Assembly (NCBI GenBank): GCA_016176335.1
Contig: JACOXI010000004.1
Span: forward strand, 146,303 to 210,302
Direction of reading: 5' to 3'
Origin: Candidatus Daviesbacteria bacterium
Lineage (GTDB): Bacteria; Patescibacteriota; Microgenomatia; Daviesbacterales; UBA10151
Length of the DNA: 64,000 nucleotides
Shown here in pieces: positions 13,488 to 54,764 of this stretch (the stretch's first letter is position 1; each line of letters opens with the position of its first letter). A program made the translations under genes and the position numbers. Under the pieces are notes generated by a model. The model saw only the letters and a list, made by a program, of their open reading frames with translations, did no database searches and had not been told where the DNA came from.

Positions 13488-13502
13488 TCCCTCCGGGCGC
13501 GC
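13486..13502 (+). repeat. direct repeat of the tRNA-Arg 3' end (ATCCCTCCGGGCGCG), att-like
   Basis: The 15-nt stretch is identical to tRNA positions 13356-13370. Confidence 0.6.
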
Positions 13503-21705: not shown

Positions 21706-21753
21706 TTTCTTATAAGGCCTGATATATAATAAACCCTCTGCCTGCTTTTAAAT

Positions 21754-22626: not shown

Positions 22627-22628
22627 AT

Positions 22629-24236: not shown

Positions 24237-24261
24237 TTTTGAAAGAAGTTATATAAAAAAT

Positions 24262-25632: not shown

Positions 25633-25634
25633 TT

Positions 25635-26501: not shown

Positions 26502-26527
26502 CTTCTTAATGGTAGAATATATGGTTC

Positions 26528-31857: not shown

Positions 31858-32531
31858 GTTTAATAATAAAGCTGTCTAAAATAAATAAAGTCTACAAGAC
31901 CGGGGAAATTTCCTTTCTGGCTTTAAAAAATATTAACCTTGAGGTCAAAAAAGGAGAATTCATTGCCATCATAGGTGCTTCAGGTTCTGGTAAATCTACC
32001 TTAATGAACATCATAGGCCTCCTGGATCACCCTACCTCCGGAACATATATTCTGGACGGGCAGGACAGTTCGGATTTTGGGGAGGACTATTTGGCGAAAA
32101 TCAGGAACGAAAAAATCGGCTTCGTCTTTCAGTCATTTAACCTGCTTGCCAGAACTTCTGCCTGGGATAATGTTGCCCTACCCTTAATTTATGCGGGAAT
32201 ATCAAGAAGTCAAAGACTGCAAAGAGCAAGGGAAGTTTTGGAACGGGTAGGGCTGGGTGACAAATTAGAGTCCCACCCGAATCAGCTTTCAGGGGGACAG
32301 CAGCAAAAGGTGGCTATTGCCAGAGCTTTGGTTAATAATCCGGAACTCATTTTGGCAGATGAGCCAACAGGCAATCTGGATTCTAAATCAGGCGGGGAAA
32401 TCATGAATCTTTTTGAAAAGCTTTCCAGTGAGGGTAAAACCATTATTATGATTACTCATGAAGCAACAATTGCCCGCCATGCAAAAAGGGTTATCAGGCT
32501 AAAAGATGGGGGTATCCAATGGAGACAATAA
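31854..32531 (+). CDS. ABC transporter ATP-binding protein (MacB/LolD/FtsE-like)
   Basis: Walker [10 protein letters not shown]. Signature [15 protein letters not shown]. Walker [12 protein letters not shown]. Confidence 0.9.
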
Positions 32532-33700
32532 ATTCAGCTCTAACATCAATCTTTGCGAACAGATTAAGGTCTTTCCTGACGATTCTGGGAATTGTGATTG
32601 GCGTCATGTCTGTCATACTGTTAATCTCTTTGGTGTCCGGCCTTAAAACTTATATCACCAACCAAATCCAAGGCTTAGGGGCAAACCTACTGATAGTAAT
32701 TCCCGGAAGAATTGGTGGAGCCCGCTCCCCCGGCGGGGTACAGGCAAATAGGTTGGTTTATGCTGATGCTTTAAATTTGCGCAGCAAGTTATCAAATGAT
32801 GCACAAGTCTCTGCTGCAATACAAAGAAACGCCACTTTAAAGTTTGGCAACAAAAACGACAAAGGAGTGGCTATTTTTGGGGTTGAGGCCACTTATCCAA
32901 AGATTGTTTCCATAAAACTTACAGCAGGCAGATTTTTCAATCAGTCAGAACAACAATCATCAAGAAAGGTGGCGGTAATAGGTACAACAGTTAAAAGTAA
33001 CCTTTTTGGGGAGGGCAGCGGCTTGGCACAAACAATTGATGTGGCAGGATTGAAATATACTGTCATCGGCATATTGGGGCAAAGAGGAGCCATCTTTGGT
33101 ATTGACTTGGATAATGCAATTTATATCCCCCTACCTTCTGCCGAAAGGCAATTTGGGATAGATCGCCTTAACACCATCTATATTTCTGCCAATAGTGCCG
33201 AATCAGTCGGGGATGTGCAAAATAAGGCAGTCTCGCTTTTGAAAAAAAGATTATCAGAGGACGAATTTACTGTACAAACCCAAGAACAAACCTTGTCCAC
33301 AATTTCTCAAATAACTGGGGTTTTAACTCTGGCTTTGGGAGGAATTGCCGCAATATCTTTAATTGTCGGGGGAATAGGCGTTATGAATATTATGCTTGTG
33401 TCAGTCACCGAACGCACAAGAGAAATTGGACTTCGAAAGGCTCTCGGGGCCAGACCAAAAGATATCAGAAACCAATTTTTGATTGAGGCTATGACTTTAT
33501 CAGGGCTGGGTGGTATTATTGGAATTGTTTTGGGAATTGGCATATCCCTTATTATTGGCAGATTTTTTACCACCACTGTCCCACTTTGGTCAGTGGCCCT
33601 CTCTTTTGGATTTTCCATGCTGGTGGGAGTAATCTTCGGAGTTACCCCCGCCATCCGCGCTGCCAGACTAGATCCAATTACTGCTTTAAGGTATGAATAA
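32519..33700 (+). CDS. ABC transporter permease (FtsX/MacB-type)
   Basis: N-terminal TM, a large periplasmic domain and a C-terminal FtsX-like 3-TM bundle. Confidence 0.85.
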   Translation: METINSALTSIFANRLRSFLTILGIVIGVMSVILLISLVSGLKTYITNQIQGLGANLLIVIPGRIGGARSPGGVQANRLVYADALNLRSKLSNDAQVSAAIQRNATLKFGNKNDKGVAIFGVEATYPKIVSIKLTAGRFFNQSEQQSSRKVAVIGTTVKSNLFGEGSGLAQTIDVAGLKYTVIGILGQRGAIFGIDLDNAIYIPLPSAERQFGIDRLNTIYISANSAESVGDVQNKAVSLLKKRLSEDEFTVQTQEQTLSTISQITGVLTLALGGIAAISLIVGGIGVMNIMLVSVTERTREIGLRKALGARPKDIRNQFLIEAMTLSGLGGIIGIVLGIGISLIIGRFFTTTVPLWSVALSFGFSMLVGVIFGVTPAIRAARLDPITALRYE

Positions 33701-41811: not shown

Positions 41812-42043
41812 ATAATCAAAATTTTTGGCATTATACTACCTCCAGCCATTTTTTTCATCTCTAGTGAGCCGGCTAGTACCTTAAACCTGCTTCGCCCGCT
41901 CAGCGAGGCGAGCAGACTGCGGGAATTCTCCAAATTATTCCTTCATGACGGTCTAAACTCCGAATTTGCCTACCTTTTTCTTTAGAAAAAGGCAAGCTCT
42001 GCTTATACATTTGGCCTAAAAAATGCATAGTAAAGTACAACAG

Positions 42044-43102
42044 TCATCTCTCCTTTAAAACATAATACGTGGCTTTACCTTTACCTTTTCTATCAATTAG
42101 ACCTAAATCTATTAATTTCTTAAAATCCAATGCTCGAGTGGCTTTTGCCCGTTCAATTAGTTTTGCATAATCACGATCAGCAATAAATCCTTTCTCTTTT
42201 ATAAACCTAAGTATTTTCAAGTGATGGGGTTGTAACTTAGTTTCTGGGCTTATTCCAACTTCCGGAAGTAGTTTTTGGACTCTTAAAAGTTCATCAATTA
42301 TTCCTTCTGTAAAATATTCCAGCCATGAGGTGAAATCAGTTTTATCTACCAATTCATAATAATTGCCAAACTCTCCTACAGTCTGAAAATATTTAGTAAC
42401 ATTTTTGTTGTAGTAATTCTCGAAGCTAAACAAGTTAAAAGTGTTCAGTCCCATTTCAGCAAGCAATACTTTTGTAGTAAGACGGGTTGTTCTTCCGTTT
42501 CCATCCATAAAAGGATGAATAATTACCATTTGTTTGTGGAATATACCCGCTAAAATTAAAGGATCAATTTTATTTCTATTGTCATTTATAAATTCTACTA
42601 GGTCTTCTATAAGTGTCTTTATATCTTTTGCATCAGGCGGTAAGTAAATAACTTTTCTAGTCCTTGGATCATTTACAACTACTGGTTGCTCCATCAATTT
42701 TCCAGATTCAAACTTAGGCAATAGTCCAACAGTCACTTGCTTTTGAATTTTTAACATCAGCTCAAGAGATAATCTTACTTTTGCCTTTTCAAGTTTTTCA
42801 TTTAAATTCTGGAGTGCCTGATTGTAATTTAAAACCTCCCTTTCACTATCTCTTAATACGCTAGTATCAAACTTGTTTATATGTGCAGGCTTTGTTTTGA
42901 GAATTTTTTTAACTTCTGTTAAAGGAAGGGGATTGCCTTCGATACTGGTTGAAGCATAAGTTGACACTGCCCTTGCTGTTTTTTCAAGTTCTACTAACAC
43001 AACGTGGGGAAATCGTCTATTATTGAGTTCATTTACTAAAGTATTAATTCTTTTAATCTTTGCCAGGAGACGATCCGTAATTGTATAGCGGGGGTTAAGC
43101 AT
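42044..43102 (-). CDS. Fic family protein (paralog of 2675-3733, same length)
   Basis: HPFMDGNGRTTRLTTKVLL Fic motif. N-terminal STSIEGN. C-terminal wHTH-like tail. Confidence 0.85.
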   Translation of the reverse strand: MLNPRYTITDRLLAKIKRINTLVNELNNRRFPHVVLVELEKTARAVSTYASTSIEGNPLPLTEVKKILKTKPAHINKFDTSVLRDSEREVLNYNQALQNLNEKLEKAKVRLSLELMLKIQKQVTVGLLPKFESGKLMEQPVVVNDPRTRKVIYLPPDAKDIKTLIEDLVEFINDNRNKIDPLILAGIFHKQMVIIHPFMDGNGRTTRLTTKVLLAEMGLNTFNLFSFENYYNKNVTKYFQTVGEFGNYYELVDKTDFTSWLEYFTEGIIDELLRVQKLLPEVGISPETKLQPHHLKILRFIKEKGFIADRDYAKLIERAKATRALDFKKLIDLGLIDRKGKGKATYYVLKER

Positions 43103-43142
43103 ATAGTCTAATTATAAGCGGAGCTTGAAATACTCCATGGTC

Positions 43143-43168
43143 GTATTATAGACGATTAGTAGACGATT
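43143..43168 (-). promoter_or_regulatory. two direct TAGACGATT repeats (11-bp period) abutting a TATAAT box upstream of the second Fic gene
   Basis: Repeats at 43149-43157 and 43160-43168. TATAAT on the minus strand at 43145-43150. Confidence 0.4.
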
Positions 43169-43717
43169 CTCAATGGGTAAAATTTCGATCCCTGTGGCCA
43201 AGTTGAATCATCAGATAAGAGGACCAATTCCTGAGGCTGGTAGCCCTAGAGAGGTCATACAGATGGATACTGTGGATTTTGGGGCTGTGTTGCCTTTACA
43301 GGAGTAGATATCTTCACCAAAGAAGTTAATGTTAAGCTGTATCCATCACTCACCGCTAAAGATGGGTTAGATTTCTTAAGTTCCTCTTTTGATTCAAGGT
43401 TCCATCACACTAATCTTTTGCAAACTGATGGAGGCCCTGAATTTAAGGCTGAATTTAAAGCTAATGTATTCAAATATGCAGATAGATTCAGAGTAGCCAG
43501 GCCATATAAAAAGAATGAGCAAAGCTACATTGAGAGTTTTAACAGATCACTCAGAAAAGAGTGTTTAGGCTGGAGTAAGTATAGGACTAATCAGTTGTCA
43601 AGCCTAACTAGAGAACTAACAGATTATTTGATGTATTATCATACTAAGAGGCCTCATATGAGTTTAGGTATGAAAACTCCTGAGAGGTTTTTAAAAGAAC
43701 TAGTGTCGGATATTTAA
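43165..43717 (+). pseudogene. remnant of a DDE (rve integrase-core) transposase, IS481/IS3-like, frameshifted and N-terminally truncated
   Basis: Fragments in two frames: ...REVIQMDTVDFG, then GVDIFTKEV...LQTDGGPEF...RPH.SLG.KTP, which is the typical C-terminal rve segment. Confidence 0.7.
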
Positions 43718-43818
43718 GTGTACATACCGCACAATATATTGAGTAACTAAGGCCTCGCTTTCTTAATTGTTTTTATCAATTTCTTGCTATATAATTCATA
43801 GCAATTCTGCCTAACAAA

Positions 43819-44622
43819 ATGGTTGACATACAAAATCAGAATGATACCAGACAAATACCACTTGAGATGGTAGGAATTAAAAATATTGCTTTGCCCTTGT
43901 TAGTACCTACAAAATCCGGTAAACCGCAAAATGTAACAGGACTTGTCAGCTTTTATACTAATTTGCCTCACAATAGTAGAGGTACTCATATGAGCCGCTT
44001 TGTCGAAGTATTATACAGAAATCGTCGTAATCATTTAACTTTCCAGCAACTAAAACATATTGCTGGTGAAGCCAAAAAAAAACTTAAAGCTGAAAAGGCA
44101 TATCTGGAAGTATCTTTTACCTATCTAATAGAGAAGAAATCTCCAGTATCAAAAAAGTATAGCTTTCTAGACTATGAATGCAAAGTCGCTTCTAAAGTTA
44201 ATTCAGGTGATTATGAACAAAGATTAACTGTTAATGTCCCAGTATTATTACTTTGTCCATGTAGTAAGGCAATCAGCAAATTTAATGCACATAGCCAGAG
44301 GGCAACTGTGACTATTGAGGCAGATTTTATAGGTGAATTTTGGATTGAGGATTTAATAAGGTTGATAGAGAAAGAAGGAAGTTGTGAGATTTACCCGTTA
44401 TTAAAAAGAGCGGATGAAAAATATGTAACTGAAAGATCGTACGACAATCCTAAGTTTGTGGAGGATATTGTTCGTGATATTGCCTTGAAACTAAAAAAAA
44501 CCGCAAGTATCCAGTCTTTTGTTGTAGAATGCGAAAGCTATGAATCAATACACAATCATAATGCTTATGCCAAATTCGTAAGTGATAGTGTCAAAAAAGG
44601 AGCCAGAAATGTTAATAGCTAA
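43819..44622 (+). CDS. folE2: GTP cyclohydrolase FolE2/MptA family (GTP cyclohydrolase I type 2)
   Basis: Conserved ...NSRGTHMSRF segment and the 267-aa length typical of COG1469. Confidence 0.75.
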   Translation: MVDIQNQNDTRQIPLEMVGIKNIALPLLVPTKSGKPQNVTGLVSFYTNLPHNSRGTHMSRFVEVLYRNRRNHLTFQQLKHIAGEAKKKLKAEKAYLEVSFTYLIEKKSPVSKKYSFLDYECKVASKVNSGDYEQRLTVNVPVLLLCPCSKAISKFNAHSQRATVTIEADFIGEFWIEDLIRLIEKEGSCEIYPLLKRADEKYVTERSYDNPKFVEDIVRDIALKLKKTASIQSFVVECESYESIHNHNAYAKFVSDSVKKGARNVNS

Positions 44623-44953
44623 AGAATTTACTTTTGATTCTGCTCATAAATTACCTAACTATAATGGTTTATGTGCAAATTTGCATGGGCATACTTACAA
44701 ACTGGTTGTATGTCTGAATGGAAAAATCAAAGAAGACGGAATGGTGATTGATTTTAGTGTGCTTAAACAAAAAGTAAACGATAAAGTCATTAAATTATTA
44801 GACCATAAATTTTTAAATGATTTGATTGATTATCCTACTGCAGAAAATATTGCAGTTTGGGTATGGAAACGATTAATTAAGGAATTGCCGCAGTTATATG
44901 AGATTTCTTTATGGGAAACACCAACCAGTCACGTTATTTATAGAGGTGATTGA
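44609..44953 (+). CDS. queD: 6-carboxy-5,6,7,8-tetrahydropterin synthase
   Basis: CxxxHGH (CANLHGHTY) motif. SD AAAAAGGAG at 44594-44602. Start at ATG 44609. Confidence 0.88.
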   Translation: MLIAKEFTFDSAHKLPNYNGLCANLHGHTYKLVVCLNGKIKEDGMVIDFSVLKQKVNDKVIKLLDHKFLNDLIDYPTAENIAVWVWKRLIKELPQLYEISLWETPTSHVIYRGD

Positions 44954-44962
44954 ATATAGAAT

Positions 44963-45706
44963 ATGGCTGAGAAATATACACCAACTCCACTTGAGGCACA
45001 AAGAATTAAAATGCAACCGGATATGTTGAAGGTTTCCGGTGACGGGGTGTTTTTTTCTATACAGGGCGAGGGAAGGAGTTTGGGGTTGCCATCTGTTTTT
45101 TTACGACTTCATTTTTGCAATTTACGTTGTAGCTGGTGTGATACAAAATATACTTGGGATAAAAATTCTCCTGAGTTTTGGCAAGAATCCCAAGATTGGA
45201 CTATAGATCGGGCTAAGGCAGAGATCACGCGTTTTCCTGCCAGGAGATTAATAGTCACAGGAGGAGAACCACTGCTTCAGCAAAGAAAGATCGTGAATCT
45301 ATTACAACAAATGCCTGATTGGGAAGTAGAAATTGAAACATCAGGCACAATAGCTCCGTTACCAGAGTTACAAGAACGTGTTCAGTTTAATGTATCGCCA
45401 AAGCTGGATAATTCTGGAAACCCAAGAGTAGTTAGACTTAAACCTCAGGTTTTGCGTGCACTAAACGAATTACCTTTAACCAGTTTTAAATTTGTAGTTC
45501 AGGATCCAAGTGATTTTGCGGAAATCCATCGAATTGTTCAAGACTGTGGTTTAGACCAGTCAAAAATAATTATTATGCCCGAAGGATCAACGCAAGAAGA
45601 CATTAGAAGACATGGTTTGATGGTTGTTGAGGATGTTAAATTACAGGGTTGGAGATTAATGCCCAGACTTCATATAGACCTATGGGGACACCAAAGAGGC
45701 ATCTAG
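44963..45706 (+). CDS. queE: 7-carboxy-7-deazaguanine synthase (radical SAM)
   Basis: CNLRCSWC radical-SAM cluster motif. Confidence 0.88.
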   Translation: MAEKYTPTPLEAQRIKMQPDMLKVSGDGVFFSIQGEGRSLGLPSVFLRLHFCNLRCSWCDTKYTWDKNSPEFWQESQDWTIDRAKAEITRFPARRLIVTGGEPLLQQRKIVNLLQQMPDWEVEIETSGTIAPLPELQERVQFNVSPKLDNSGNPRVVRLKPQVLRALNELPLTSFKFVVQDPSDFAEIHRIVQDCGLDQSKIIIMPEGSTQEDIRRHGLMVVEDVKLQGWRLMPRLHIDLWGHQRGI

Positions 45707-45713
45707 CAATTTA

Positions 45714-46421
45714 TTATTTAGCATTATATTTAAGGGGATCAGTTAAGCCTAAACTTTGGAAAGCTGCTTGACGGGATCTGCAGTTACTGCAACCACCACA
45801 GGAGAGTTTTGTGGCGTTATGACAAGACCAGGTCAATTCAAATGGCACATTTAAACTTGTCCCTGTTTGCACCACCTGTGCCTTATTCATATGAATTAAA
45901 GGAGCTATAATTTGAATATCTGTTTTAAGCATAGTTCCAAGTCTAGTAAGTTGTTGAAATGCTACCATAAATTCAGGTGAATTATCAGGGCAAATTCGAT
46001 CGCTGCCTGTTGAACCAATGTATACTCTATCAGCACCTGAAACCTCAGCGAGAACCACTCCAACTGCAAGTAAAATGGAATTTCTAAAGGGAACATATTC
46101 AAACCTTTCGTTTGATTCATTAAGTTCAACATCCCTTCTAAATAGTCCAGACCCCCCGAATCTTTTTAACCAAGGTAATCTAACTGTATCAAGGGTTATT
46201 GCTTGAAAATGAGCTGCCAAAGTGGTAGCACTTCTTCTTTCCTTACTTGCTGTTTTTTGTCCGTACTCTACAAAAAGGAATCGGGTTTGAAAACCGTCTC
46301 TTTGGGCAACAGCTACTGCTACAGCGCTGTCTAAACCTCCACTTACTAAGCAAACAGCTAGTGGTTTGGATTCCGGTGTTATCATTGGCGCTATGATAGC
46401 AATGTAAATAGCAAATATCAA
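45714..46421 (-). CDS. queC: 7-cyano-7-deazaguanine (preQ0) synthase
   Basis: PP-loop SGGLDS. C-terminal zinc Cys cluster CGGCSNC. The start may be the internal ATG at 46385. Confidence 0.88.
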   Translation of the reverse strand: MIFAIYIAIIAPMITPESKPLAVCLVSGGLDSAVAVAVAQRDGFQTRFLFVEYGQKTASKERRSATTLAAHFQAITLDTVRLPWLKRFGGSGLFRRDVELNESNERFEYVPFRNSILLAVGVVLAEVSGADRVYIGSTGSDRICPDNSPEFMVAFQQLTRLGTMLKTDIQIIAPLIHMNKAQVVQTGTSLNVPFELTWSCHNATKLSCGGCSNCRSRQAAFQSLGLTDPLKYNAK

Positions 46422-46444
46422 TATGATACACTTAGTGTTAAATT

Positions 46445-47308
46445 ATGGGCGAAAGAGGTAGAGATATTACTGTAGTAATAGCAAACTCTGAAGATGAATC
46501 AGTCTTTAACTGTATTGACTCAGCTAATGGAGGAGCAAAAATTGTGGTGTCTCTTACTCCATACGCACCTATAGAAGCTAGGCTTTCTAGGTTAAACATA
46601 CCCTTTGTAGTTGTACCCAGAGGAAATTTGAGTATAACCTATAATTCTGGGATTGAACTAGCCACAACTAACAAAGTTATCATAATGGATAGCGACACAG
46701 TATTTACACCCAGAGCAATTGAGCAGTTAGGACACGGATTAGAACAATACGACGCTTGTAAAGCCAGACTCTCGTTTCAATATGATGACACCCAAACCTT
46801 GAGCGGGATAGTCGCGAATGCTAGGGATTTTATTAATTCCTCCCCGACTAGGGCGTACACACCGGGTCTTGCGCTTAGAAAAGATATTAGGAATCAAATG
46901 GGCGGTTACTTCTTTAATGAACAAATCAGGTGGGCCGTGGACTCAGAATTTTCATACAGATTTCATAAAAACGGACTACAATTTGGTTATATACCAGATG
47001 CGGTGGTTAACCACCCTGCAGTTTCTATAAGACACGATTTAACAGAAGCTTTTTTAATGGGATTAAGTAAAAGAAGGGCTGTTGATTTGGGAGTGAGGGA
47101 GGGAAATGAGGATGTACTTCCTACCTTAAAAAGAATACTTTCAGGAGAGACTTTCGCAAAAAGAGGAAAATTATTTAAAGAAAAAGGGGTGAGCACATTA
47201 CTTTATATGTTGACTTGGGATTTACTTTATAATTTTGGTTATAACTTAAGAAAATTAGGATTATCCGGTTCAACAGAAGAAAGGATATGGCGAGGTTTCG
47301 GAAGATGA
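46445..47308 (+). CDS. glycosyltransferase, GT-A fold (GT2-like)
   Basis: N-terminal VVIANSEDES and a DSD (DxD) motif. Translationally coupled to the carbamoyltransferase by an ATGA overlap. Confidence 0.55.
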   Translation: MGERGRDITVVIANSEDESVFNCIDSANGGAKIVVSLTPYAPIEARLSRLNIPFVVVPRGNLSITYNSGIELATTNKVIIMDSDTVFTPRAIEQLGHGLEQYDACKARLSFQYDDTQTLSGIVANARDFINSSPTRAYTPGLALRKDIRNQMGGYFFNEQIRWAVDSEFSYRFHKNGLQFGYIPDAVVNHPAVSIRHDLTEAFLMGLSKRRAVDLGVREGNEDVLPTLKRILSGETFAKRGKLFKEKGVSTLLYMLTWDLLYNFGYNLRKLGLSGSTEERIWRGFGR

Positions 47309-48987
47309 GCAAAGAACAAATAATTTTGGGTATAAATGGTTATTCAAGAAGAGTTCACGATGCTTCAGCATGCATAGTGGTTAATGGAAATTTAGTTGCT
47401 ATGGCTGAAGAAGAAAGATTTACAAGAAGAAAAAAGGCTTTTGGGGAAGTTCCTCATAATGCTATTGCTTTTTGTCTTGATAGAGCCGGTATAACGGTGG
47501 ATCAAGTAGACTCTATAGCTATTGGTTGGAATTTTGATAAAGTATTTGGGAATATAGGAGCTAAACCACCCACTCGGGATGAACTTATAGATCTTTATCT
47601 GCCCTCGGATAGGTTTAAATATTCTAAAAGACCAGAATTAGAAATGGTTTCTCATCATCTGGCTCATGCCGCCTCGGCATACTACTTATCAGGTTTTCCG
47701 GAGTCCTTAGTACTGGTAATTGATGGCCAAGGTGAAACACAATCAACGAGTGTCTTCACTGCAAAAGGCAAAGGCGTTTCACTTATTAGAGAATTTGGAG
47801 TAACAGATTCACTGGGATTTTTTTATGAAGCTGTCAGTGAATATGTAGGTTTATCAAGACTGGATGTTGGCAAAACAATGGGATTGGCAAGTTATGGTAG
47901 CCCAATATACGAATTTGGTTTATTTAGATTAGTTGAAGGAGGATACTCAGTTGATTTGATTCCCCCAGCTCAGCGGGAAATGGATTTACAACAGGAGGTT
48001 ACTAGATTATGGAGAGATTATTTAGAAGGGAAATTTGGACCAGCTAATAGAGTAGATTTGGCCTATGATTCTACTCGCGCAAGATTTAAAAGAGAAGTTT
48101 CCTTTGGAGATACTTATAAGAATGTTACTGCCTCAGCGCAAAAAGCTCTGGAGGATGTGGTGAGGCATTTGATCACTCTTTATGCTGCTGAATACCAAAT
48201 GAAAAATCTGTGTATAGCAGGAGGTGTAGGTCTGAACTGTTCAATGAATGGAGTAATAGCTAGAGACGGAATCGTAGCGGATTTTTTTGTACCTCCTTTT
48301 TCTAACGATGCTGGAGTATCAGTTGGTGCGGCTTTATATTTATCTGATCAAAAACCAACTACTAGATTAGAATCAGCATCACTCGGACCTGAATTTTCAA
48401 ATGACGCTATTGTTACTACCTTAAAATCGCTTGGAATTGATTACAGGTCGGTAGATGATATTGGCAGCTATGTGGCTAAACTTTTAGCTGAAGATAAAAT
48501 AGTTGACTGGTTTCAGGGAAAAATGGAAGCTGGACCAAGAGCATTAGGAAATCGAAGTATATTAGGAAATCCTACAAATAGAGCAACTCATCATAGATTG
48601 AATGAGATAAAAAATAGAGAACCCTGGAGACCTCTAGCTCCCAGCTTTTTAGCAGAAGATTTAGCAAACTATATGCAAGACAGTTCAGATTCACCTTTTA
48701 TGTTAAGAGCTTTTCTGACAAGACCAAATAAAGTAAGTGAAATACCGGCAGCAGTTCATATTGATGGAACTTCAAGGGCACAAACAGTAACAGAAAGGAC
48801 TAGTCCCCTGTATTACAGACTAATCAAGGATTTTAAACATATTAGTGGAATCCCTGCTGTTATGAACACTTCATTTAATCTGGAATATGAACCAATAGTT
48901 TGTTCACCCCATGATGCAATAAGAACCTTTTATTCAAGCAGTGCTGATTATTTGGCCATTGGAGATGCGCTTATTTCAAAAAGATAA
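47305..48987 (+). CDS. carbamoyltransferase (NodU/CmcH/TobZ family)
   Basis: N-terminal ILGINGYSRRVHDASACIV ASKHA-like block. C-terminal YrdC/Kae1-like carbamoyltransferase region. 560 aa. Confidence 0.88.
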   Translation: MSKEQIILGINGYSRRVHDASACIVVNGNLVAMAEEERFTRRKKAFGEVPHNAIAFCLDRAGITVDQVDSIAIGWNFDKVFGNIGAKPPTRDELIDLYLPSDRFKYSKRPELEMVSHHLAHAASAYYLSGFPESLVLVIDGQGETQSTSVFTAKGKGVSLIREFGVTDSLGFFYEAVSEYVGLSRLDVGKTMGLASYGSPIYEFGLFRLVEGGYSVDLIPPAQREMDLQQEVTRLWRDYLEGKFGPANRVDLAYDSTRARFKREVSFGDTYKNVTASAQKALEDVVRHLITLYAAEYQMKNLCIAGGVGLNCSMNGVIARDGIVADFFVPPFSNDAGVSVGAALYLSDQKPTTRLESASLGPEFSNDAIVTTLKSLGIDYRSVDDIGSYVAKLLAEDKIVDWFQGKMEAGPRALGNRSILGNPTNRATHHRLNEIKNREPWRPLAPSFLAEDLANYMQDSSDSPFMLRAFLTRPNKVSEIPAAVHIDGTSRAQTVTERTSPLYYRLIKDFKHISGIPAVMNTSFNLEYEPIVCSPHDAIRTFYSSSADYLAIGDALISKR

Positions 48988-49026
48988 TCTTTAGGTTAGA
49001 ATACAAGATCTAAAATAAGAAGCACT

Positions 49027-50280
49027 ATGGAACGCTTTCAACAGTTACAAGAAGAATTAATTGAAGGTGCCCGCATTCAAGATGAGTATGATTTGAGTAC
49101 TATAAATTTGATTGCACCTGCCAGCCCTACTCCTTTAAAGTATTTCTATGATCTACCTTTAAGACATAATGCGATAGCTGAAGGTTTACTAGGCCATAGA
49201 CCATATGCTGGTGTTGAAGGTTTTAATAGAATTGAAAGAATAGCAGTCGAAGCCGCTTGTTTATTATTTGGAGCAGAGCATGCCAATGTTCAGCCTCATT
49301 CAGTTAGCCAGGCAAATCAAGCTGTATACCAGGCACTCCTTGATAACGGGGATCGTGTATTGGCAATGAGGTTTCAAGATGGCGGACATTTGAGTCATGG
49401 ATTAAGGTTTAATTTTTCAGGCCGTTTCTTTGATTTTAATTTTTATGGAGTCGATAGAACAACAGGATTAATAGATTATGATGCGTTAGAGGAAAAAGCA
49501 GTAACCTTTAATCCAAAACTAATTGTTTGTGGCGCATCTTCTTATCCAAGAGCAATTGATTTTGAAAGATTAGCTGCTATTTCGACTAAAGTAGGTTCTT
49601 GTTTAATGGCTGATTTATCGCATCCAGCTGGATTAATTGTTGCAAACAGATTTCCTAAGCCTTTCCCATACTGTAATGTAGTTACGTTTACACCAGATAA
49701 AACAATGCTCGGTCCCCACGGTGGGATAATATTGTGCAAAAATGACTTAAGTGAGCAAATAGATAAAGCAGTTCACCCTGGGGTTCAGTCAAGCGTCCCA
49801 TTAAGAAGAATATACCAGATGGCTCAATGTCTAATTGATGCAAGTAAGCCGGAGTTTACAGACTACATAGACAGGGTAATTAAAAATATGAAAGCATTTG
49901 AAGCTGAATTTGGTAGAATTCCCAATATAATGATAACAGGTGGAAGCGATACACATCTGATGGTTATAGATACTAAGAATACGTTTGGCTTAACTGGTAA
50001 ACAATCTGAAGAATTATTAGAAACTCTCGATATTTTAACCAATAGACAGGTTATTCCCGGAGAAACACTTAAACCTTATGTGGCAAGTGGAGTAAGGTTA
50101 GGCACATCCTGGATAACTGCCAGAGGCTACAACGAGGTTGAAGCCAAAGAAATTGCAGAAATAATTTTAGATAACTTATCTGACCCAGCAAACCTAGTAG
50201 TTCAAGCAAGATCAAAGGAAGCAGTTAATAATCTTTTAAAAATTAAGAGAGCAGATGATGTTTGGTATGAGGAAAGTTAA
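49027..50280 (+). CDS. serine hydroxymethyltransferase-family PLP-dependent enzyme
   Basis: NLIAPASPTPLKYF... and NVQPHS.SQAN.AVY...GD.VL.M...GGHL.HG blocks align with GlyA. A biosynthetic context suggests a tailoring role. Confidence 0.8.
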   Translation: MERFQQLQEELIEGARIQDEYDLSTINLIAPASPTPLKYFYDLPLRHNAIAEGLLGHRPYAGVEGFNRIERIAVEAACLLFGAEHANVQPHSVSQANQAVYQALLDNGDRVLAMRFQDGGHLSHGLRFNFSGRFFDFNFYGVDRTTGLIDYDALEEKAVTFNPKLIVCGASSYPRAIDFERLAAISTKVGSCLMADLSHPAGLIVANRFPKPFPYCNVVTFTPDKTMLGPHGGIILCKNDLSEQIDKAVHPGVQSSVPLRRIYQMAQCLIDASKPEFTDYIDRVIKNMKAFEAEFGRIPNIMITGGSDTHLMVIDTKNTFGLTGKQSEELLETLDILTNRQVIPGETLKPYVASGVRLGTSWITARGYNEVEAKEIAEIILDNLSDPANLVVQARSKEAVNNLLKIKRADDVWYEES

Positions 50281-50283
50281 TTA

Positions 50284-50961
50284 ATGAGTGAAGAAATAAA
50301 TAATAAAGCTTACCCGGAAGTCGACAGTTTAATTAAAGAAACTGATGAACCCGACTATATTACTCATGCATTTGCTGATATTGGTATTCCATCTCTTATC
50401 ATTCTTCGAAGTGTGTTTAGGGTTGACAACTCTTTCTTAGGAGGTTATTTAGCTAGAACACTACACGCTAGTAATGAATTAGCTAAACGCAAATCTGTCT
50501 TAGATTTAGGCTGCGGTTGTGGTTTACAAGGACTAGTCTGTGCCTTACATGGAGCAAAGAGCGTTCATTTTAGTGACATCAATCAATCTGCAGCAAAAAA
50601 TAGTCGCTTAAATTCTATTTTACTAGATGTAAATAATGTGAGTTTCAGTACTGGTGATTTATTTGCCAACATCCCACCCAGAAAGTTCGATCTCATTATT
50701 TTTAACCCACCGTCAATAACAGGTACACCTTCCAACGATTCCGAAGCAGCGTTTTTTCGCGAAGACAGAGTAGTAGAAGATTTTTTCAAATTATTTCCAG
50801 GATATTTAAGAAGAGAAGGAGTTGTAATAATGCCTGGATCATCTAAGTTTGAAGGTGATACGTCCCCAATGAGTATGATTAGAAGGTACAACCTAGGCTA
50901 TGAGATGGTAAGCAGAGAAGAAGATGATACGACAAAATATGTTGTTTTATTTAAACCTTAA
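50284..50961 (+). CDS. SAM-dependent methyltransferase (small-domain type, FNPPS motif)
   Basis: LDLGCGCGLQGL motif I. DLIIFNPPS motif IV, as in N-methyltransferases of the HemK/PrmC class. Confidence 0.65.
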   Translation: MSEEINNKAYPEVDSLIKETDEPDYITHAFADIGIPSLIILRSVFRVDNSFLGGYLARTLHASNELAKRKSVLDLGCGCGLQGLVCALHGAKSVHFSDINQSAAKNSRLNSILLDVNNVSFSTGDLFANIPPRKFDLIIFNPPSITGTPSNDSEAAFFREDRVVEDFFKLFPGYLRREGVVIMPGSSKFEGDTSPMSMIRRYNLGYEMVSREEDDTTKYVVLFKP

Positions 50962-50973
50962 TTTAAACTTGAT

Positions 50974-51657
50974 ATGATACCAGAAAAACCGCTAGGTATA
51001 AATCGGCCTGAGTATTCGTTTGTTAATCCAAACACCTTGCTTTTTTTAGCGGGTGCTCCATTATCAGGAAAATCTACGATTGCACCTTTGGTAGCATCTA
51101 GGATTGAAGCATGCTCAATACAAAATATGGATATATTCCGCTTACTAGCCCAAGAAATGGAAATGATCAAACCTGAAAGGAAGAGGAATGCATTTGTGAG
51201 TTTCGGAGCTTGTGATAGTTATGTTTTTGTAGGAGACGGTTCTTATTCACCTGAAAGTCTTATAATTGGATTTAATTCATATGCCCGAGTAGTGAGTTCT
51301 TTTTTAAGCAAGGTCGTACCAAGATTAGAAGTCCAAGGAGCTCAAAGAGTATTATTTGAAGGTGTTCAGTTAACACCTCAAGTCGTATCACCATTTTTAA
51401 CAGGCAATAATAAATTAATAATAGTTACATTAGATATAGCTAGATTAGAAAGTAATAGAGACAAACGGTATGGCCAAGACAAAGAACTTCTTCAAAGATA
51501 CTCATCAGAAAAAATACTCTTAATACAAGAAGAGCTTGTCAGACAAGGTCGAGAGCTTTCCCCAAATAAAGTTTTTTTTGTGAATAATTCAGCTGATTAT
51601 ATAGATTCAGCTGCCGCAGTTATTCGTCTTCTGATCACGGAAGGTGTAATCTCTTAA
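50974..51657 (+). CDS. P-loop NTPase, probably a small-molecule kinase
   Basis: Walker A GAPLSGKST near the N-terminus. 227 aa. Confidence 0.5.
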   Translation: MIPEKPLGINRPEYSFVNPNTLLFLAGAPLSGKSTIAPLVASRIEACSIQNMDIFRLLAQEMEMIKPERKRNAFVSFGACDSYVFVGDGSYSPESLIIGFNSYARVVSSFLSKVVPRLEVQGAQRVLFEGVQLTPQVVSPFLTGNNKLIIVTLDIARLESNRDKRYGQDKELLQRYSSEKILLIQEELVRQGRELSPNKVFFVNNSADYIDSAAAVIRLLITEGVIS

Positions 51658-51705
51658 TTTTAATTCATTTAAAAATTTACCTCCTTGCTTTGGTATACTT
51701 AATGT

Positions 51706-52452
51706 ATGACTTATGAGGAATTAAAGAAAGTTTATGATCAGGTTGGACAGCGCTCAGGTTGGGACTTTTCAAAACTAAAGGATGAAAGGGAACCAGTTCC
51801 ATGGAACTATTTAGATGTTGTAAAAGCATATCTTCAAGATACATTCTCGGTATTGGATGTAGGAACGGGCGGAGGGGAAAAGTTCATAAAACTTTCTGAG
51901 TTTTTTACCAAAGGAGTTGGTGTTGATCCTGATCCGGACATGATTAAAACTGCTAATGTTAATAAAAAAAAAGCTCAAAATAGCAAAGTAACTTTTGAGC
52001 AATTTGGTGCTGAAAATTTAGAAAAACTTAATCAAGTATTTGATTTAATCATTAACCGTCATGCTCCTGTAGTTGCTGATCAAATAGTAAAAGTTCTTAG
52101 ACAGGGCGGATATTTTATAACTCAACAAGTAACCTCAAAAAATATGCAAAATTTTAGGGATATTTTTAATATATCCCAATTTGTATCTAAATGGCATAAT
52201 AATCTGGATACAATGGTTCCAGAATTTAAGAAGCTTAAGTGCAGAATTGTTGCAACAGGTGAGTATGATGTAAATTATTGGGTTAAAGACGTTAAGTCTT
52301 TAATATTTTGGTTGAAGGCCATAGATATGCCAAAGGGTTTTAATATGGAGAATCACTGGCAACAAATTAATGAAATAGTTGAGAAATTTACCACTCCTCA
52401 GGGAATAGTTTCAAATGAACATAGACAACTCCTCATTACCCAAAAATTATAA
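51706..52452 (+). CDS. class I SAM-dependent methyltransferase
   Basis: VLDVGTGGGEKF motif I. Confidence 0.75.
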   Translation: MTYEELKKVYDQVGQRSGWDFSKLKDEREPVPWNYLDVVKAYLQDTFSVLDVGTGGGEKFIKLSEFFTKGVGVDPDPDMIKTANVNKKKAQNSKVTFEQFGAENLEKLNQVFDLIINRHAPVVADQIVKVLRQGGYFITQQVTSKNMQNFRDIFNISQFVSKWHNNLDTMVPEFKKLKCRIVATGEYDVNYWVKDVKSLIFWLKAIDMPKGFNMENHWQQINEIVEKFTTPQGIVSNEHRQLLITQKL

Positions 52453-52559
52453 AAAGAATTTTCATTCTACTCTTCTTGCTTGGATTATTAGATAGTTTGG
52501 AATTATATTTGGTTTTTAATAAAGACATGTGCTAAAATTAGCAGCTCATAGTTAATCAA

Positions 52560-53582
52560 ATGGCAAAGCAAGAACTTAGAGGTTATAGTCCTACTCTTCT
52601 GGAAGACGTTCAAAGACGTCTAACAGAGGTTGACGTATCTCCAAATGAGGGGATTGGGCAGCATTTCTTGGTTAATCAAGAAGCTGTAGATTTATTGGCA
52701 CAAACAGTAAACCAAGGAGCTACAGTTATAGAAGTGGGATGTGGGGTTGGACATGTAACTGAAAGATTAGCAGAAAGAGCCTCCAGATTACACGGCATAG
52801 AAATTGACCGTAGATATCATCCCTTACTGGAAAAAATTATGAGTGCTCGAAGTAATGTGTTTATCACTTATGCAGATGCCTTAAAAACGGATTTTAATCG
52901 AATGCTAAAAGACGATAACGAAGGACAGATTGTTGCAAGTTTACCATATCATATTACCGAACCTTTCATGCATAAAGTATCACCTTTAAAATTAGCTAGT
53001 GTGTCTTTAGTAATGGGAAGAAGGTATGCCGATTCAATAGCCGCTTCATTTAATTCAGGCGATTTTGGTAGATTGAGTATTTTAACTACAACTTTTTTTG
53101 ATGTTGAAACATTAGCAACTATTCAAAGAGATGGATTCTTCCCTATTCCAAGAACCGATTCGGCAATAGTACAACTTAGGCCAAGGGACGTAAGGGAAGT
53201 TGGATCAAACAGGAAAGATGCAATATTCAGACATCTATTTCTTACATCAAGGCAAAATACAACATTGAGAAAAGGATTAAAAGAAGGATTTGATGCATTT
53301 GAACAATCAAGAGATGGAATGGGTTTGTCTAAGGAGCAGCGCAATCGTAAATCCAGATCAAATACGCGTTTACGGTTAAAATCAATAGTAGATAGCATGA
53401 ATCGTGGCGAAATTGATTTTAGCGATAGAGGCGGTAGAGATAGAGGAGCCTTTTCAAAAGATATCTCCGCTGTTAGTAGAAATGCTATAGGTAAATTAGA
53501 TATCCCACATTCAGTGCTAGACAAACCATTTAGTTTATTAAACAACTCTGAACTGAGAATGCTATATAAGTCATTAGGTTAA
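52560..53582 (+). CDS. rRNA adenine N6-methyltransferase family protein (KsgA/Erm-like) with an about 60-aa C-terminal extension
   Basis: GQHFLVNQ. VIEVGCGVGHVT. IEIDRRY. ASLPYHITEP. These are the KsgA/Erm signature blocks. Confidence 0.78.
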   Translation: MAKQELRGYSPTLLEDVQRRLTEVDVSPNEGIGQHFLVNQEAVDLLAQTVNQGATVIEVGCGVGHVTERLAERASRLHGIEIDRRYHPLLEKIMSARSNVFITYADALKTDFNRMLKDDNEGQIVASLPYHITEPFMHKVSPLKLASVSLVMGRRYADSIAASFNSGDFGRLSILTTTFFDVETLATIQRDGFFPIPRTDSAIVQLRPRDVREVGSNRKDAIFRHLFLTSRQNTTLRKGLKEGFDAFEQSRDGMGLSKEQRNRKSRSNTRLRLKSIVDSMNRGEIDFSDRGGRDRGAFSKDISAVSRNAIGKLDIPHSVLDKPFSLLNNSELRMLYKSLG

Positions 53583-53586
53583 TGAT

Positions 53587-54420
53587 ATGGAATATAAAGA
53601 AATAGGCGCTGTTAAGTTATCAGCACTTGGTATTGGTACTTACGGTTTTGGTGGAGGGCTCACTAGAGATACCTCAAACGACCGAAGGGACATTGAAGCT
53701 CTTCAATATGCTATAGAGCTTGGTATGACCCATATTGACACTTCTGAGATGTATGCTGATGGCCATAGCGAAGAATTAATTGGACAAGCTATCAGAGATT
53801 TTGATAGACACAGCTTATTTGTCGCTACCAAGGTTTTTCAATCAGGTTTAACATTCAATGGTGTCATTGAGGGGTGCAAACAGAGTCTCAGAAGACTCGG
53901 TACGGACTATGTTGATCTTTATTTAATCCATTGGCCAAATTTAAAAATTCCCTTATCAGAGACAATCCAAGCCATGGATGAGTTAGTCAGACAAGGTTCA
54001 GCAAGGTTTATTGGGGTCAGCAATTTTTCTATTAAACTGTTAAAACAAGCTCAGGAGTTAAGCCATCATCCTATCTTAACTGACCAAGTAGAGTATTCTC
54101 TTTTGGTAAAAAATCCAGAGAGTGATTTACTTCCATATTGTCAAAAGAACGATATTTTTTTAACAGCATATAGACCAATAGGAAGAGGTAGGATTAGGGC
54201 TGGAGTTAATCAAGTGTTAGATGATGTTGCCAAAGAACACAATAGAACTGCTGTTCAAGTAGCTTTAAATTATCTTATTTGTCAGGAAAATGTTTTAGTT
54301 ATACCAAAAGCAGCACAAAGACATCATCTTGAAGAAAATTTAGGATCAATGGGTTGGAGATTAGATCAAGAAGATATCAGAGCGCTCCAACAAGCATTCC
54401 AGACAACTATTGCAGTTTAG
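53587..54420 (+). CDS. aldo/keto reductase
   Basis: DTSEMYADGHSEE. LYLIHWP. 277 aa. Confidence 0.88.
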   Translation: MEYKEIGAVKLSALGIGTYGFGGGLTRDTSNDRRDIEALQYAIELGMTHIDTSEMYADGHSEELIGQAIRDFDRHSLFVATKVFQSGLTFNGVIEGCKQSLRRLGTDYVDLYLIHWPNLKIPLSETIQAMDELVRQGSARFIGVSNFSIKLLKQAQELSHHPILTDQVEYSLLVKNPESDLLPYCQKNDIFLTAYRPIGRGRIRAGVNQVLDDVAKEHNRTAVQVALNYLICQENVLVIPKAAQRHHLEENLGSMGWRLDQEDIRALQQAFQTTIAV

Positions 54421-54517
54421 GGTTATATAGGTTATATATTTCATAGTTTAAGTATATTGACTTCGGGTTAGTTTTGGTCTAATGTAAAACTACAATATTT
54501 TTTGAAAAGTTCTTTTG

Positions 54518-54541
54518 CGAGCAAAGCGAGCAGTCCCGATG
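54518..54541. repeat. GC-rich motif GCGAGCAAAGCGAGCAG plus hairpin GTCCCGAT-gata-TATCGGGAC
   Basis: The 12-mer GAGCAAAGCGAG also occurs at 40823-40834, next to tRNA-Arg. An 8-bp perfect stem follows. Confidence 0.45.
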
Positions 54542-54690
54542 ATATATCGGGACAAAATTTTTGCGTTCCTCGTTTTTTGTTCTTTTTAACCGGCGACTTG
54601 TGCCGGAATTTAATCGGGGCTTTGCAGAGCTCTGGCTGACCCCTCCCAGTCAGAGCCAACCTTCGGACTCCTTTAGGATTTCCAATTCAG

Positions 54691-54764
54691 TGAGCCGGCT
54701 CGGGATCGAACCGAGAACCTACTCCTTAAGAGGGAGTTGCTCTAACCAATTGAGCTACCGGCCC
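54691..54764 (-). tRNA. tRNA-Lys (anticodon CTT)
   Basis: Reverse complement gives acceptor GGGCCGG/CCGGCTC. D-arm AGCTCAATTGGTTAGAGC. Anticodon stem-loop ACTCC-CTCTTAA-GGAGT. T-arm TCTCG-GTTCGAT-CCGAG. Confidence 0.85.

Follow-up and report, generated by a model that had tools for sequence, protein, structure and literature searches.

A preQ0-centred accessory island in a Candidatus Daviesbacteria genome: a candidate diversifying 7-deazaguanine cluster with a linked KsgA/Dim1-derived methyltransferase

One locus of Candidatus Daviesbacteria (Patescibacteria) raises the question of what use is made of 7-cyano-7-deazaguanine (preQ0) by a bacterium with the complete pathway to this base, no Tgt or DpdA transglycosylase beside it, and a neighbouring set of glycosyl, carbamoyl and methyl transfer genes that includes a relative of the rRNA adenine methyltransferases. 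The locus lies within a stretch of 64,000 nucleotides (positions 146,303 to 210,302 of contig JACOXI010000004.1, assembly GCA_016176335.1). This stretch is referred to here as the window, and all coordinates are positions within it. The segment concerned, 41.9-54.7 kb (12.8 kb), is supported as an accessory island of the chromosome in a variable region 3′ of a tRNA-Lys gene. It contains a tightly packed biosynthetic cluster of 10.6 kb (43819-54420), with intergenic gaps of -40 to 108 nt. The favoured reading, given a probability of roughly 60%, is that of a diversifying cluster for a glycosylated, carbamoylated and methylated 7-deazaguanine metabolite, accompanied by an rRNA methyltransferase for self-resistance. 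Every step after preQ0, including the product, its target and the substrate of the methyltransferase, is inferred from sequence comparison.

The complete set of FolE2, QueD, QueE and QueC genes is found within 43819-46421, and the same set recurs in 13 related loci. FolE2, the GTP cyclohydrolase responsible for step 1, is encoded at 43819-44622 on the plus strand (PF02649, 294 bits; NF010200, 275.6 against a cutoff of 215). The genes for the 6-carboxytetrahydropterin synthase QueD (44582-44953; PTPS, 123 bits; TIGR03367, 99.2 against a cutoff of 89.25) and the radical S-adenosylmethionine (SAM) 7-carboxy-7-deazaguanine synthase QueE (44963-45706) follow on the same strand. The best NCBIfam matches of QueE are four QueE models, all below cutoff; the protein has a CxxxCxxC motif at C52-C59, and its orthologues occupy the same position in related clusters. 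The preQ0 synthase QueC is read from the minus strand at 45714-46421 (PF06508, 171 bits; TIGR00364, 135.8, just under the cutoff of 150.3) and carries a C-terminal cysteine cluster. Two window proteins have 100% identical deposited counterparts, HYS96_03675 and HYS96_03700.

The enzymes acting downstream in the known preQ0 pathways are missing. No Tgt, DpdA, QueF or QueA was detected in the island or among 54 window open reading frames (ORFs) scanned with Pfam, namely all 53 of at least 150 aa plus QueD, with six other ORFs of 100-149 aa outside the scan. This agrees with a first-pass annotation, made from the sequence without database searches, which had reported the island to lack QueF, Tgt and DpdA. 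QueG/H is likewise absent from the window, and neither Tgt/DpdA, QueF nor QueA is present in any related cluster, the scanned unknown ORFs of those clusters included. An Rfam scan of the window returned tRNAs only and no preQ1 riboswitch. PADLOC recorded no Dpd components, DpdA, DpdB and DpdC among them, and gave only a generic QueC match and a weak QatC match. A 2026 survey took the full pathway without Tgt or DpdA as the mark of secondary-metabolite 7-deazapurine clusters; the window has the full preQ0 set, with no TGT or DpdA in the cluster or the scanned ORFs. As neither a phosphoribosyltransferase nor enzymes for guanine-to-adenine conversion were found in the Pfam and NCBIfam scans, the product would be expected to keep a guanine-like base.

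The tailoring genes follow directly and are all read from the plus strand. The first, at 46445-47308, encodes a glycosyltransferase of family 2 (GT2) with a GT-A fold, termed GT2L, which has a DSD motif at residues 82-84. As a single sequence it scores 21.4 bits against the GT2 cutoff of 23.3, and a 12-sequence profile (A5) matches the GT-A/GT2 structures of chondroitin synthase, SunS and dolichol-phosphate mannose synthase (DPMS). Orthologues with 58-74% identity are present in three related loci (L001, L002 and L004) and GT2 homologues with 28-33% in three more (L005, L006 and L012). The alignment shows the DSD conserved, with DD instead in three orthologues, together with a W-x-E-D-x-E motif. 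The gene at 47287-48987, for which the deposited gene model starts six codons later, encodes an O-carbamoyltransferase of the TobZ/NodU family (PF02543, 159 bits; PF16861, 215 bits). It aligns with TobZ, the O-carbamoyltransferase of tobramycin, over its full length (412 bits, E = 4e-122; TobZ residues 9-572 against 13-565), and both the Kae1-like N-terminal and the YrdC-like C-terminal domains are matched.

Next to it, at 49027-50280, is a diverged pyridoxal phosphate (PLP) enzyme of the serine hydroxymethyltransferase (SHMT) family (PF00464, 313 bits; NF000586, 371 against a cutoff of 335), which from residue 47 onwards shares about 45% identity with bacterial SHMT. Its motifs are rewritten: ASENF to APASPT, YAEGYPG to IAEGLL, RYYGG to RPYAG, TTHK to T(P/L)DK, GPRGG to GPHGG and the tetrahydrofolate-contacting NKN to NRQ. 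These changes are conserved in 10 of 10 cluster copies, almost all of them invariant, and the protein thus appears to be a cluster-specific, neofunctionalised paralogue under purifying selection, not glyA. An orphan P-loop protein, presumed to be a kinase, is encoded at 50974-51657; it has a Walker A motif of the form GxxLSGKS and no Pfam match. Its similarity to 2-phosphoglycerate kinase and APS kinase is weak, and its profile matches the PDB at Walker A level only. The P-loop protein always adjoins the SHMT paralogue. The family is rare: a search of 1.84 billion representative proteins gave 33 matches (E <= 1e-3), of which some two thirds are clear members and many are fragments.

Two methyltransferase genes stand to either side of the P-loop gene. 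An MTS/HemK-like N-methyltransferase with an NPPS motif is encoded at 50284-50961 (PF05175, 55 bits); its orthologues, at 50-52% identity, lie between the SHMT and RrnaAD genes in loci L024 and L027. A class-I SAM methyltransferase is encoded at 51706-52452 (Methyltransf_31, Methyltransf_25 and Methyltransf_11), with a 51% identical orthologue in L001. The last gene of the operon, for an aldo-keto reductase (53587-54420; PF00248, 222 bits), starts 5 nt after the stop of the RrnaAD gene. It is specific to the window variant, no counterpart being present in the other clusters. Pfam and NCBIfam thus return the gene list of the first-pass annotation (Fic, rve, the four preQ0 genes, GT2, carbamoyltransferase, SHMT-like, P-loop, RrnaAD and aldo-keto reductase) except in one count: three SAM methyltransferases had been named besides the RrnaAD enzyme, and two are found.

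The RrnaAD gene itself, at 52560-53582 on the plus strand, encodes a KsgA/Dim1-derived paralogue of the rRNA adenine methyltransferases and is the proposed immunity gene (PF00398, 121.4 bits against a cutoff of 24). The protein falls below both equivalog cutoffs, with 149.1 against 171 for ksgA (TIGR00755) and 100.1 against 212 for Erm (NF000499). Against the PDB, the family profile matches KsgA/Dim1 structures at 158-179 bits and ErmC′ at 83. The enzyme had been called Erm/KsgA-like; the second half of that name is retained, the KsgA score leading by 149 to 100 bits and, among structures, by 179 to 83, and the first half is given up. The comparison indicates a KsgA/Dim1-derived enzyme, not an Erm-like one. 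An AF2 model (pLDDT 86) has the two-domain fold, with DIMT1, Dim1 and KsgA as top Foldseek matches at E = 6e-21.

SAM motifs I-III and the adenine-pocket motifs (S/N)LP(Y/F) and FxPxP(R/K) are intact, the Asn of motif IV being replaced by Ser in the window protein. Because the SAM and base-pocket motifs are intact, the enzyme is predicted to be, and should be, an active amino-methyltransferase. All members of the family have LP[YF]HI(T/S)EP instead of NLPYNI and a conserved C-terminal L-x-KPF-x-x-L-N-N-x-EL, and most have a charged, K/R-rich insertion of 60-70 aa in the C-terminal domain. In the modelled fold, this kept and enlarged RNA-binding domain argues for an RNA substrate.

Scores of the protein's homologues run from 744 to 162 bits with coverage near 95%; canonical RsmA/KsgA proteins of 268-290 aa come next, at no more than 91 bits and 55% coverage. 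The discrete set of scores, the signature and insertion, the rarity of the family and the occurrence of two copies in four clusters together indicate that it is not the housekeeping KsgA. The score gap and the rare, cluster-linked family also uphold the separation from housekeeping KsgA on which the first-pass annotation depended. No second KsgA homologue was found in the window, so that paralogy is not demonstrable inside the window.

The four clusters with two RrnaAD-like genes are L015, L018, L024 and L027; the copies are adjacent in L018 and L027 and stand at opposite cluster ends in L015 and L024. In L018, L024 and L027 one of the copies is short (254-289 aa) and lacks the insertion. Paired mono- and dimethylating Erm enzymes occur in some macrolide producers, and the two-copy clusters recall this arrangement. 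A 414-aa reading frame on a 1.8-kb Logan contig (P0173) was considered as a functional RrnaAD-FolE2 fusion and rejected, as the first ~85 FolE2 residues are joined in frame in truncated form. The fusion is probably a deletion or an assembly artefact, which still shows the FolE2 and RrnaAD genes side by side.

Comparison with other genomes places the cluster in a family spread across Patescibacteria. Homologues of the carbamoyltransferase with 79, 64, 62, 54 and 45% identity are all encoded in clusters with QueC, a GT2 and an RrnaAD protein of 320-343 aa. Four of these five clusters also show GTP cyclohydrolase, QueD and QueE, the exception being the 54% locus (L005), and the flanks differ in all. 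A profile of the RrnaAD-like family (A2), scanned against one genome per species for 185,579 species, identified 24 loci in Patescibacteria (Gottesman-, Woese-, Levy-, Ames- and Shapirobacteria and Microgenomatus), one of them in the complete 802,554-bp Woesebacteria genome CP055308.1. Ten other loci were ordinary KsgA genes of Firmicutes, Spiroplasma and unclassified metagenome-assembled genomes (MAGs), at 26-32% identity. In at least 13 of the 24 Patescibacteria loci the preQ0 genes are adjacent; three more have partial modules, and at a further five the contig breaks off within 2 kb.

Gene order is shuffled between the cluster loci, and their genomic contexts differ. The RrnaAD-like gene is the sole non-preQ0 gene present in every cluster variant. 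The SHMT paralogue and the P-loop protein form a module found in the window, L001/L010, L002, L004, L013-L015, L018 and L024, with the MTS gene inserted in L024 and L027. Other recurrent modules are carbamoyltransferase with GT2; PIG-L; APH kinases; BpsA_C with an AdoMet decarboxylase; and OCD with PALP and alanine racemase. Unknown ORFs of the sister clusters were resolved as DegT/DnrJ/EryC1 aminotransferases (six loci), an FAD oxidase, glycosyltransferases of the GT4 and GT2 types, and GFO/IDH/MocA; an Fe-ADH-like and a radical-SAM protein, a deacetylase resembling HDAC and additional APH kinases were also among them. A conserved core with swappable tailoring enzymes of sugar and aminoglycoside type, rare and patchy in distribution, appears to be the signature of a diversifying biosynthetic gene cluster. 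The natural-product-like character proposed from the window is in this way borne out: the core recurs in other Patescibacteria contexts, in shuffled order and with swapped tailoring enzymes.

In the closest sister clusters (L001/L010, L002 and L003), OCD-like, PALP and alanine racemase genes lie between queE and queC. An OCD and PALP pair resembles the SbnB/SbnA type of 2,3-diaminopropionate synthesis, and these variants hint at an amino-acid appendage. Six of the loci (L010, L011, L013, L022, L027 and L028) come from MAGs labelled ‘uncultured Gammaproteobacteria’ or ‘Pseudomonadales’. Their gene content and closest homologues are Patescibacteria-like, and the submitters' taxon labels are probably wrong.

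That the segment is an accessory island is well supported by evidence independent of any terminal repeat, namely its composition, its relatives, its cargo and the different locations of the cluster in other genomes. The GC content of the island is 36.6%; the remainder of the window has 39.8%, and of 59 stretches of the same length taken elsewhere, none is under 39.1%. GC content at third codon positions (GC3) averages 0.255 in 13 island genes and 0.348 in 34 flanking genes (Mann-Whitney p = 3e-6). The switch falls exactly at the proposed borders: from 0.35 in the left-flank gene (unk307) to 0.25 in the Fic gene, and from 0.26 in the aldo-keto reductase gene to 0.34 in TypA. In two Daviesbacteria relatives (L043 and L050, TypA 81-82% identical), tRNA-Lys(CTT), TypA, tRNA-Arg(TCG) and ROK are grouped in some 3.5 kb and a preQ0 cluster is missing, the tRNA-Lys/TypA module being inverted relative to the window. 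The description of the segment as accessory and compositionally foreign accordingly stands, on the GC and GC3 shift and on its absence from this neighbourhood in both relatives. The window, L043 and L050 each have another gene, without homology to the others, 3′ of tRNA-Lys, and the 3′ flank of tRNA-Lys is taken to be a variable locus because the neighbouring gene differs in each genome. A simple reconstruction of the empty site from L043/L050 was rejected, as neither has a homologue of the window's left-flank gene at that place.

Whether the island is also bounded by attachment (att) sites is a separate question. The tRNA-Lys(CTT) gene was located on the minus strand at 54690-54764 by ARAGORN and at 54691-54764 by Rfam (69.3 bits), with its 3′ end facing the island. 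The sequence AGTGAGCCGGCT has two exact copies in the window, both on the plus strand. The proximal one, at 54689-54700, consists of the last 10 nt of the tRNA and 2 trailer nt and so covers the tRNA-Lys 3′ end through the discriminator A73, exactly as first annotated and now confirmed by exact matching, ARAGORN and Rfam. The distal one, at 41863-41874, is the putative left junction and has the orientation expected for an element inserted 3′ of tRNA-Lys. The repeat does not extend past 12 nt, and no other terminal repeats were found at the island ends. For a 12-mer specified in advance the chance expectation is 0.01, and the window has 448 different recurring 12-mers. When the window was shuffled with its 7 tRNAs fixed, 39 of 300 shuffles gave a direct 12-mer repeat touching some tRNA 3′ end (p of about 0.13), so the repeat alone is not significant. 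The att-site reading of the 12-mer is weak.

No tyrosine or serine recombinase was found among the annotated island ORFs of at least 90 aa, the sole mobility gene being a decayed rve transposase. Same-strain Logan contigs with the left-flank gene follow the window without a difference past the 12-mer and end at 41942, ~42000 or 43423; on the right, a same-strain contig begins at 54621, and none of these contigs shows an island-less junction. The contigs of relatives with 92% TypA end inside or at tRNA-Lys and so show no empty junction. A scan of the JGI metagenomes for relatives of the left-flank protein and an exact search of them with the 3′ half of tRNA-Lys returned none. The ‘classic attL/attR signature’ of the first-pass annotation is not supported in that form, with a 12-bp repeat arising by chance in 13% of shuffles, no integrase and no empty junction. 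The empty-site comparison that it had proposed gave the neighbourhood without the island in L043/L050 and no exact empty junction in Logan or JGI.

The same-strain Logan contigs of three samples share 41942 as their last position, and 54621 is the first position of a further contig; both points lie some 70 nt within the island. These recurrent breaks suggest branching of the assembly graph, by a repeat or strain variation, near both ends. A longer repeat belongs to another tRNA of the window: the last 16 nt of tRNA-Arg(TCT) (ATCCCTCCGGGCGCGC, 13356-13371) recur at 13487-13502, 131 nt downstream (window 13298-13502), and some 115 nt between the two copies are non-coding. A relic of an att pair or a small insertion could account for the arrangement.

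In the proposed mechanism, FolE2, QueD, QueE and QueC convert GTP to the free base preQ0 by the established enzymology of the four families. The base would then serve as a small-molecule scaffold, since no Tgt/DpdA transglycosylase or QueF is present. It would be glycosylated by GT2L, for which HuiG of huimycin and StnG of streptothricin are precedents. A hydroxyl of the sugar may be O-carbamoylated by the TobZ-like enzyme from carbamoyl phosphate and ATP via carbamoyl-AMP, as its full-length homology to TobZ suggests. N- or O-methyl groups would be added by the NPPS-motif and class-I methyltransferases. The SHMT paralogue, its obligate P-loop partner and the aldo-keto reductase may build or modify a further substituent through PLP aldol-type chemistry, phosphorylation and carbonyl reduction. 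The KsgA/Dim1-derived enzyme is proposed, on the model of Erm and the other rRNA methyltransferases of producers, to methylate an adenine of the producer's own rRNA and so shield the ribosome from the product.

Several observations weigh against this scheme. Three of the 24 RrnaAD-like loci (L019, L026 and L029) have full flanks without a cluster. L027 has the preQ0 genes, SHMT, MTS and two RrnaAD copies without a recognisable glycosyltransferase; because of such members, glycosylation is not universal in the family, and the conserved chemistry may be centred instead on the SHMT/P-loop/methyltransferase module. The cluster has neither a transporter nor a regulator. The att reading has 12 bp behind it, with no integrase in the island and no empty site found. 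Finally, the RrnaAD-like enzyme could methylate the metabolite instead of rRNA. On the comparative evidence, the interpretation as an island with a putative deazapurine cluster and an rRNA methyltransferase partner appears well supported.

The last of these points amounts to a rival explanation, in which the cluster does make a small molecule and the KsgA-like enzyme belongs to its biosynthesis, as an N-methyltransferase of an exocyclic amine on the deazapurine, with any immunity that is needed coming from the P-loop or APH kinases. The (S/N)LP(Y/F) motif IV is a general amino-methyltransferase motif, an NPPS enzyme is also in the cluster and makes methylation of amines a clear part of its chemistry, the motif IV Asn has become Ser in the window protein, and APH-type kinases, which are classic resistance enzymes, are present in related clusters. 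Yet the whole KsgA/Dim1 architecture is kept, with the RNA-binding C-terminal domain enlarged by the K/R-rich insertion, and a base derived from preQ0 has no N6 amino group. Being the only non-core gene common to every variant, whatever the tailoring set, suits immunity better than tailoring, and this alternative is considered unlikely. Also possible is a lineage-specific hypermodification of nucleic acid, with a 7-deazaguanine derivative put into rRNA, tRNA or DNA by an unrecognised enzyme (GT2-like, or a Tgt encoded elsewhere) and the KsgA-like and TobZ/Kae1-like enzymes acting on RNA. All known cellular uses of preQ0 outside the actinomycete antibiotics involve nucleic acid, rRNA is the substrate of KsgA-family enzymes, bases of rRNA or tRNA are frequent targets of enzymes with an MTS domain, and the Kae1-like and YrdC-like domains of TobZ are related to the t6A machinery (TsaD match); the lack of an exporter in the cluster would also fit. 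That no cluster and none of the scanned window ORFs has a Tgt/DpdA homologue, however, speaks against hypermodification, as does a family of 24 loci in 185,579 species genomes that is patchy, compositionally foreign and differently placed, unlike a modification of the translation apparatus. The DegT, PIG-L, GT4, APH, Fe-ADH-like, radical-SAM and GFO/IDH proteins also have no role in known RNA modification, which leaves this explanation quite unlikely.

Envelope polysaccharide loci, too, typically contain GT2 and GT4 glycosyltransferases, DegT, PIG-L, carbamoyltransferase and alanine racemase, and membrane-associated assembly would need no exporter. The cluster could on these grounds serve to attach a carbamoylated, methylated sugar to a glycan or lipid of the cell envelope, with an unusual aglycone or head group supplied by the preQ0 genes. 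This is judged very improbable, as no flippase, polymerase, undecaprenyl-phosphate transferase or other lipid-carrier enzyme is present in any cluster, the invariant partner is an rRNA methyltransferase homologue with no envelope role, and APH-type kinases are present. Hardly any credence is left for an ordinary, vertically inherited core genome, that is, queuosine precursor genes with syntenic housekeeping glyA and ksgA and a chance 12-mer. The SHMT does pass its NCBIfam subfamily cutoff (371 against 335), the methyltransferase does score higher as KsgA than as Erm, and the look-elsewhere probability of the 12-mer is 13%. This explanation is largely refuted by the absence of the whole block at the conserved locus in two Daviesbacteria relatives and by a GC3 sharply below that of the flanks. 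The non-canonical conserved motifs of the SHMT and KsgA homologues, which travel with preQ0 genes in unrelated contexts, and a P-loop partner with only 33 relatives in 1.84 billion proteins stand against it too. The diversifying 7-deazaguanine cluster remains the favoured reading.

Other features of the island lie outside the biosynthetic genes. A Fic-domain protein of the SoFic type is encoded on the minus strand at 42044-43102 (Pfam Fic, 57.8 bits; PADLOC SoFic, 143 bits over the full length; GC3 0.25) and is a candidate single-gene defence, carried as island cargo outside the cluster. It was not found beside the cluster in other genomes. A second Fic-domain gene of the window, at 2615-3733, has native composition (GC3 0.39). 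Remnants of a decayed IS3/IS481-type transposase (rve) occupy two frames of the plus strand at 43173-43717, with 54 bits to rve_3 for 43418-43717 and NCBIfam matches to IS3 and IS481; the N-terminal fragment (43173-43307) has a DDE-like ‘VIQMDTVDFG’ stretch. A mobilising insertion sequence (IS) shared between clusters was rejected, as the remnant is only 26% identical to the IS near one other cluster. After the last cluster gene, a terminator-like hairpin with a T-run lies at 54533-54563 on the plus strand. It is a consensus match only, in a class of sites whose count is not above that of shuffles, and promoter and terminator scans of the window performed no better than shuffles.

A tripartite exporter of the MacB type (HlyD-like adaptor, ABC ATPase and FtsX permease) is encoded at 30766-33700, about 10 kb upstream of the island. 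Its three genes adjoin this neighbourhood also in L043 and in L044, a same-strain contig. The system looks like core genome, not island cargo, and could still act as an exporter. Further upstream, 20027-28237 contains two ORFs resembling acetyl-CoA carboxylase carboxyltransferase, a short-chain dehydrogenase/reductase (SDR), a 535-aa protein whose N-terminus is of the SDR type, a beta-ketoacyl synthase, a methyltransferase and a protein of 569 aa without assignment, and the run ends at tRNA-His. By its gene content it appears to be a small ketosynthase-containing cluster, in a genome type usually without fatty-acid synthesis.

Patescibacteria, for which the name candidate phyla radiation (CPR) is also in use, have genomes of ~1 Mb and are generally thought to be almost without specialised metabolism. 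The present cluster family measures 10-12 kb, is found in about two dozen species and takes up about 1.2% of the 0.80-Mb genome CP055308.1. This suggests that episymbiotic bacteria have here a chemical weapon or signal under selection. Secondary metabolism based on preQ0 is already known; novelty lies here in the phylum concerned, in the logic of the tailoring, in a KsgA-derived paralogue dedicated to the cluster and in two enzyme families to which no chemistry is assigned. If the favoured reading is true, 7-deazapurine natural products extend beyond the actinomycetes, with tailoring like that of aminoglycosides and streptothricin on a deazaguanine core, and the RrnaAD-like proteins are a new family of rRNA methyltransferases and a possible resistance determinant. 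The SHMT paralogue with its rewritten active site and the rare P-loop protein are offered as two families for the discovery of chemistry, and the reading is directly testable by expression of the 11-kb fragment. These Patescibacteria clusters were not found described in a literature search, which is not proof of novelty, and a 2026 genome-mining survey of 7-deazapurine clusters has no mention of Patescibacteria, carbamoyltransferases or rRNA methyltransferases.

Of the systems already characterised, the Dpd and phage DNA-modification systems and the queuosine pathway share only the FolE, QueD, QueE and QueC module with the island, in which their downstream enzymes and riboswitch were not found. 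The RrnaAD-like enzyme has in common with KsgA/RsmA/Dim1 and Erm the PF00398 family, the two-domain fold and the SAM and adenine-pocket motifs, and differs in its LP[YF]HITEP signature, its insertion, its rarity and its linkage to a cluster. Housekeeping KsgA/RsmA is a near-universal single-copy protein, whereas the RrnaAD-like family has only 24 loci among the 185,579 species genomes, mostly beside preQ0 genes.

The closest characterised clusters are those of huimycin (hui, Kutzneria albida) and of the dapiramicin type, in which clustered preQ0 genes without tgt or dpdA are combined with a SAM methyltransferase and a glycosyltransferase. The hui genes are directly flanked by a carbamoyltransferase gene, which is dispensable for huimycin (PMC7439116). 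HuiG belongs to PF13439 (GT4) (preprint 10.64898/2026.04.15.718813), whereas the glycosyltransferase of the window is of the GT-A/GT2 type. SHMT paralogue, P-loop protein and KsgA-like gene are all lacking in the hui cluster, the window cluster has no LuxR regulator, and the hosts are an actinomycete and a Patescibacteria genome of ~1 Mb, respectively. With the toyocamycin/sangivamycin (toy) clusters the window shares GTP cyclohydrolase and homologues of QueD, QueE and QueC, which make preQ0 as a secondary-metabolite precursor. The phosphoribosyltransferase and guanine-to-adenine enzymes are lacking here, and a nucleoside of the toyocamycin type would not be expected.

Aminoglycoside clusters resemble the present family in their tailoring, with a full-length TobZ homologue in the window and DegT, PIG-L, GT4, FAD oxidase, radical SAM, Fe-ADH-like and APH proteins in the sister clusters, and in the linkage of an rRNA methyltransferase gene. 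The core differs, being preQ0 here and not an aminocyclitol. The linked methyltransferase, derived from KsgA/Dim1, is not known to belong to the families used by aminoglycoside producers.

The likeness to streptothricin is one of design. There, a base that mimics guanine is N-glycosylated by StnG (PMC7435583), and N-glycosylation on a guanidine-type nitrogen thus has precedents in both HuiG (PMC7439116) and StnG (PMC7435583). Streptothricin F binds 16S rRNA with its guanine mimic at C1054 and its carbamoyl sugar at A1196 (PMC10187937). The related Patescibacteria clusters similarly combine GT2, PIG-L deacetylase, carbamoyltransferase and GNAT. The base here would be a true 7-deazaguanine and not streptolidine, there is no beta-lysine machinery, and the known resistance to streptothricin is by acetylation, not rRNA methylation. 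The analogy, conceptual and not drawn from homology to Stn sequences, is a lead that makes a ribosomal target and immunity by rRNA adenine methylation plausible. Taken one tentative step further, it would have Microgenomatia of the Patescibacteria producing ribosome-targeting 7-deazaguanine antibiotics N-glycosylated with a carbamoylated (amino)sugar, protected by a new KsgA/Dim1-derived family of rRNA adenine methyltransferases, with the SHMT/P-loop pair performing a new PLP-dependent tailoring of deazapurines; this fuller picture, which has streptothricin as its conceptual model, is a possibility held with considerable doubt.

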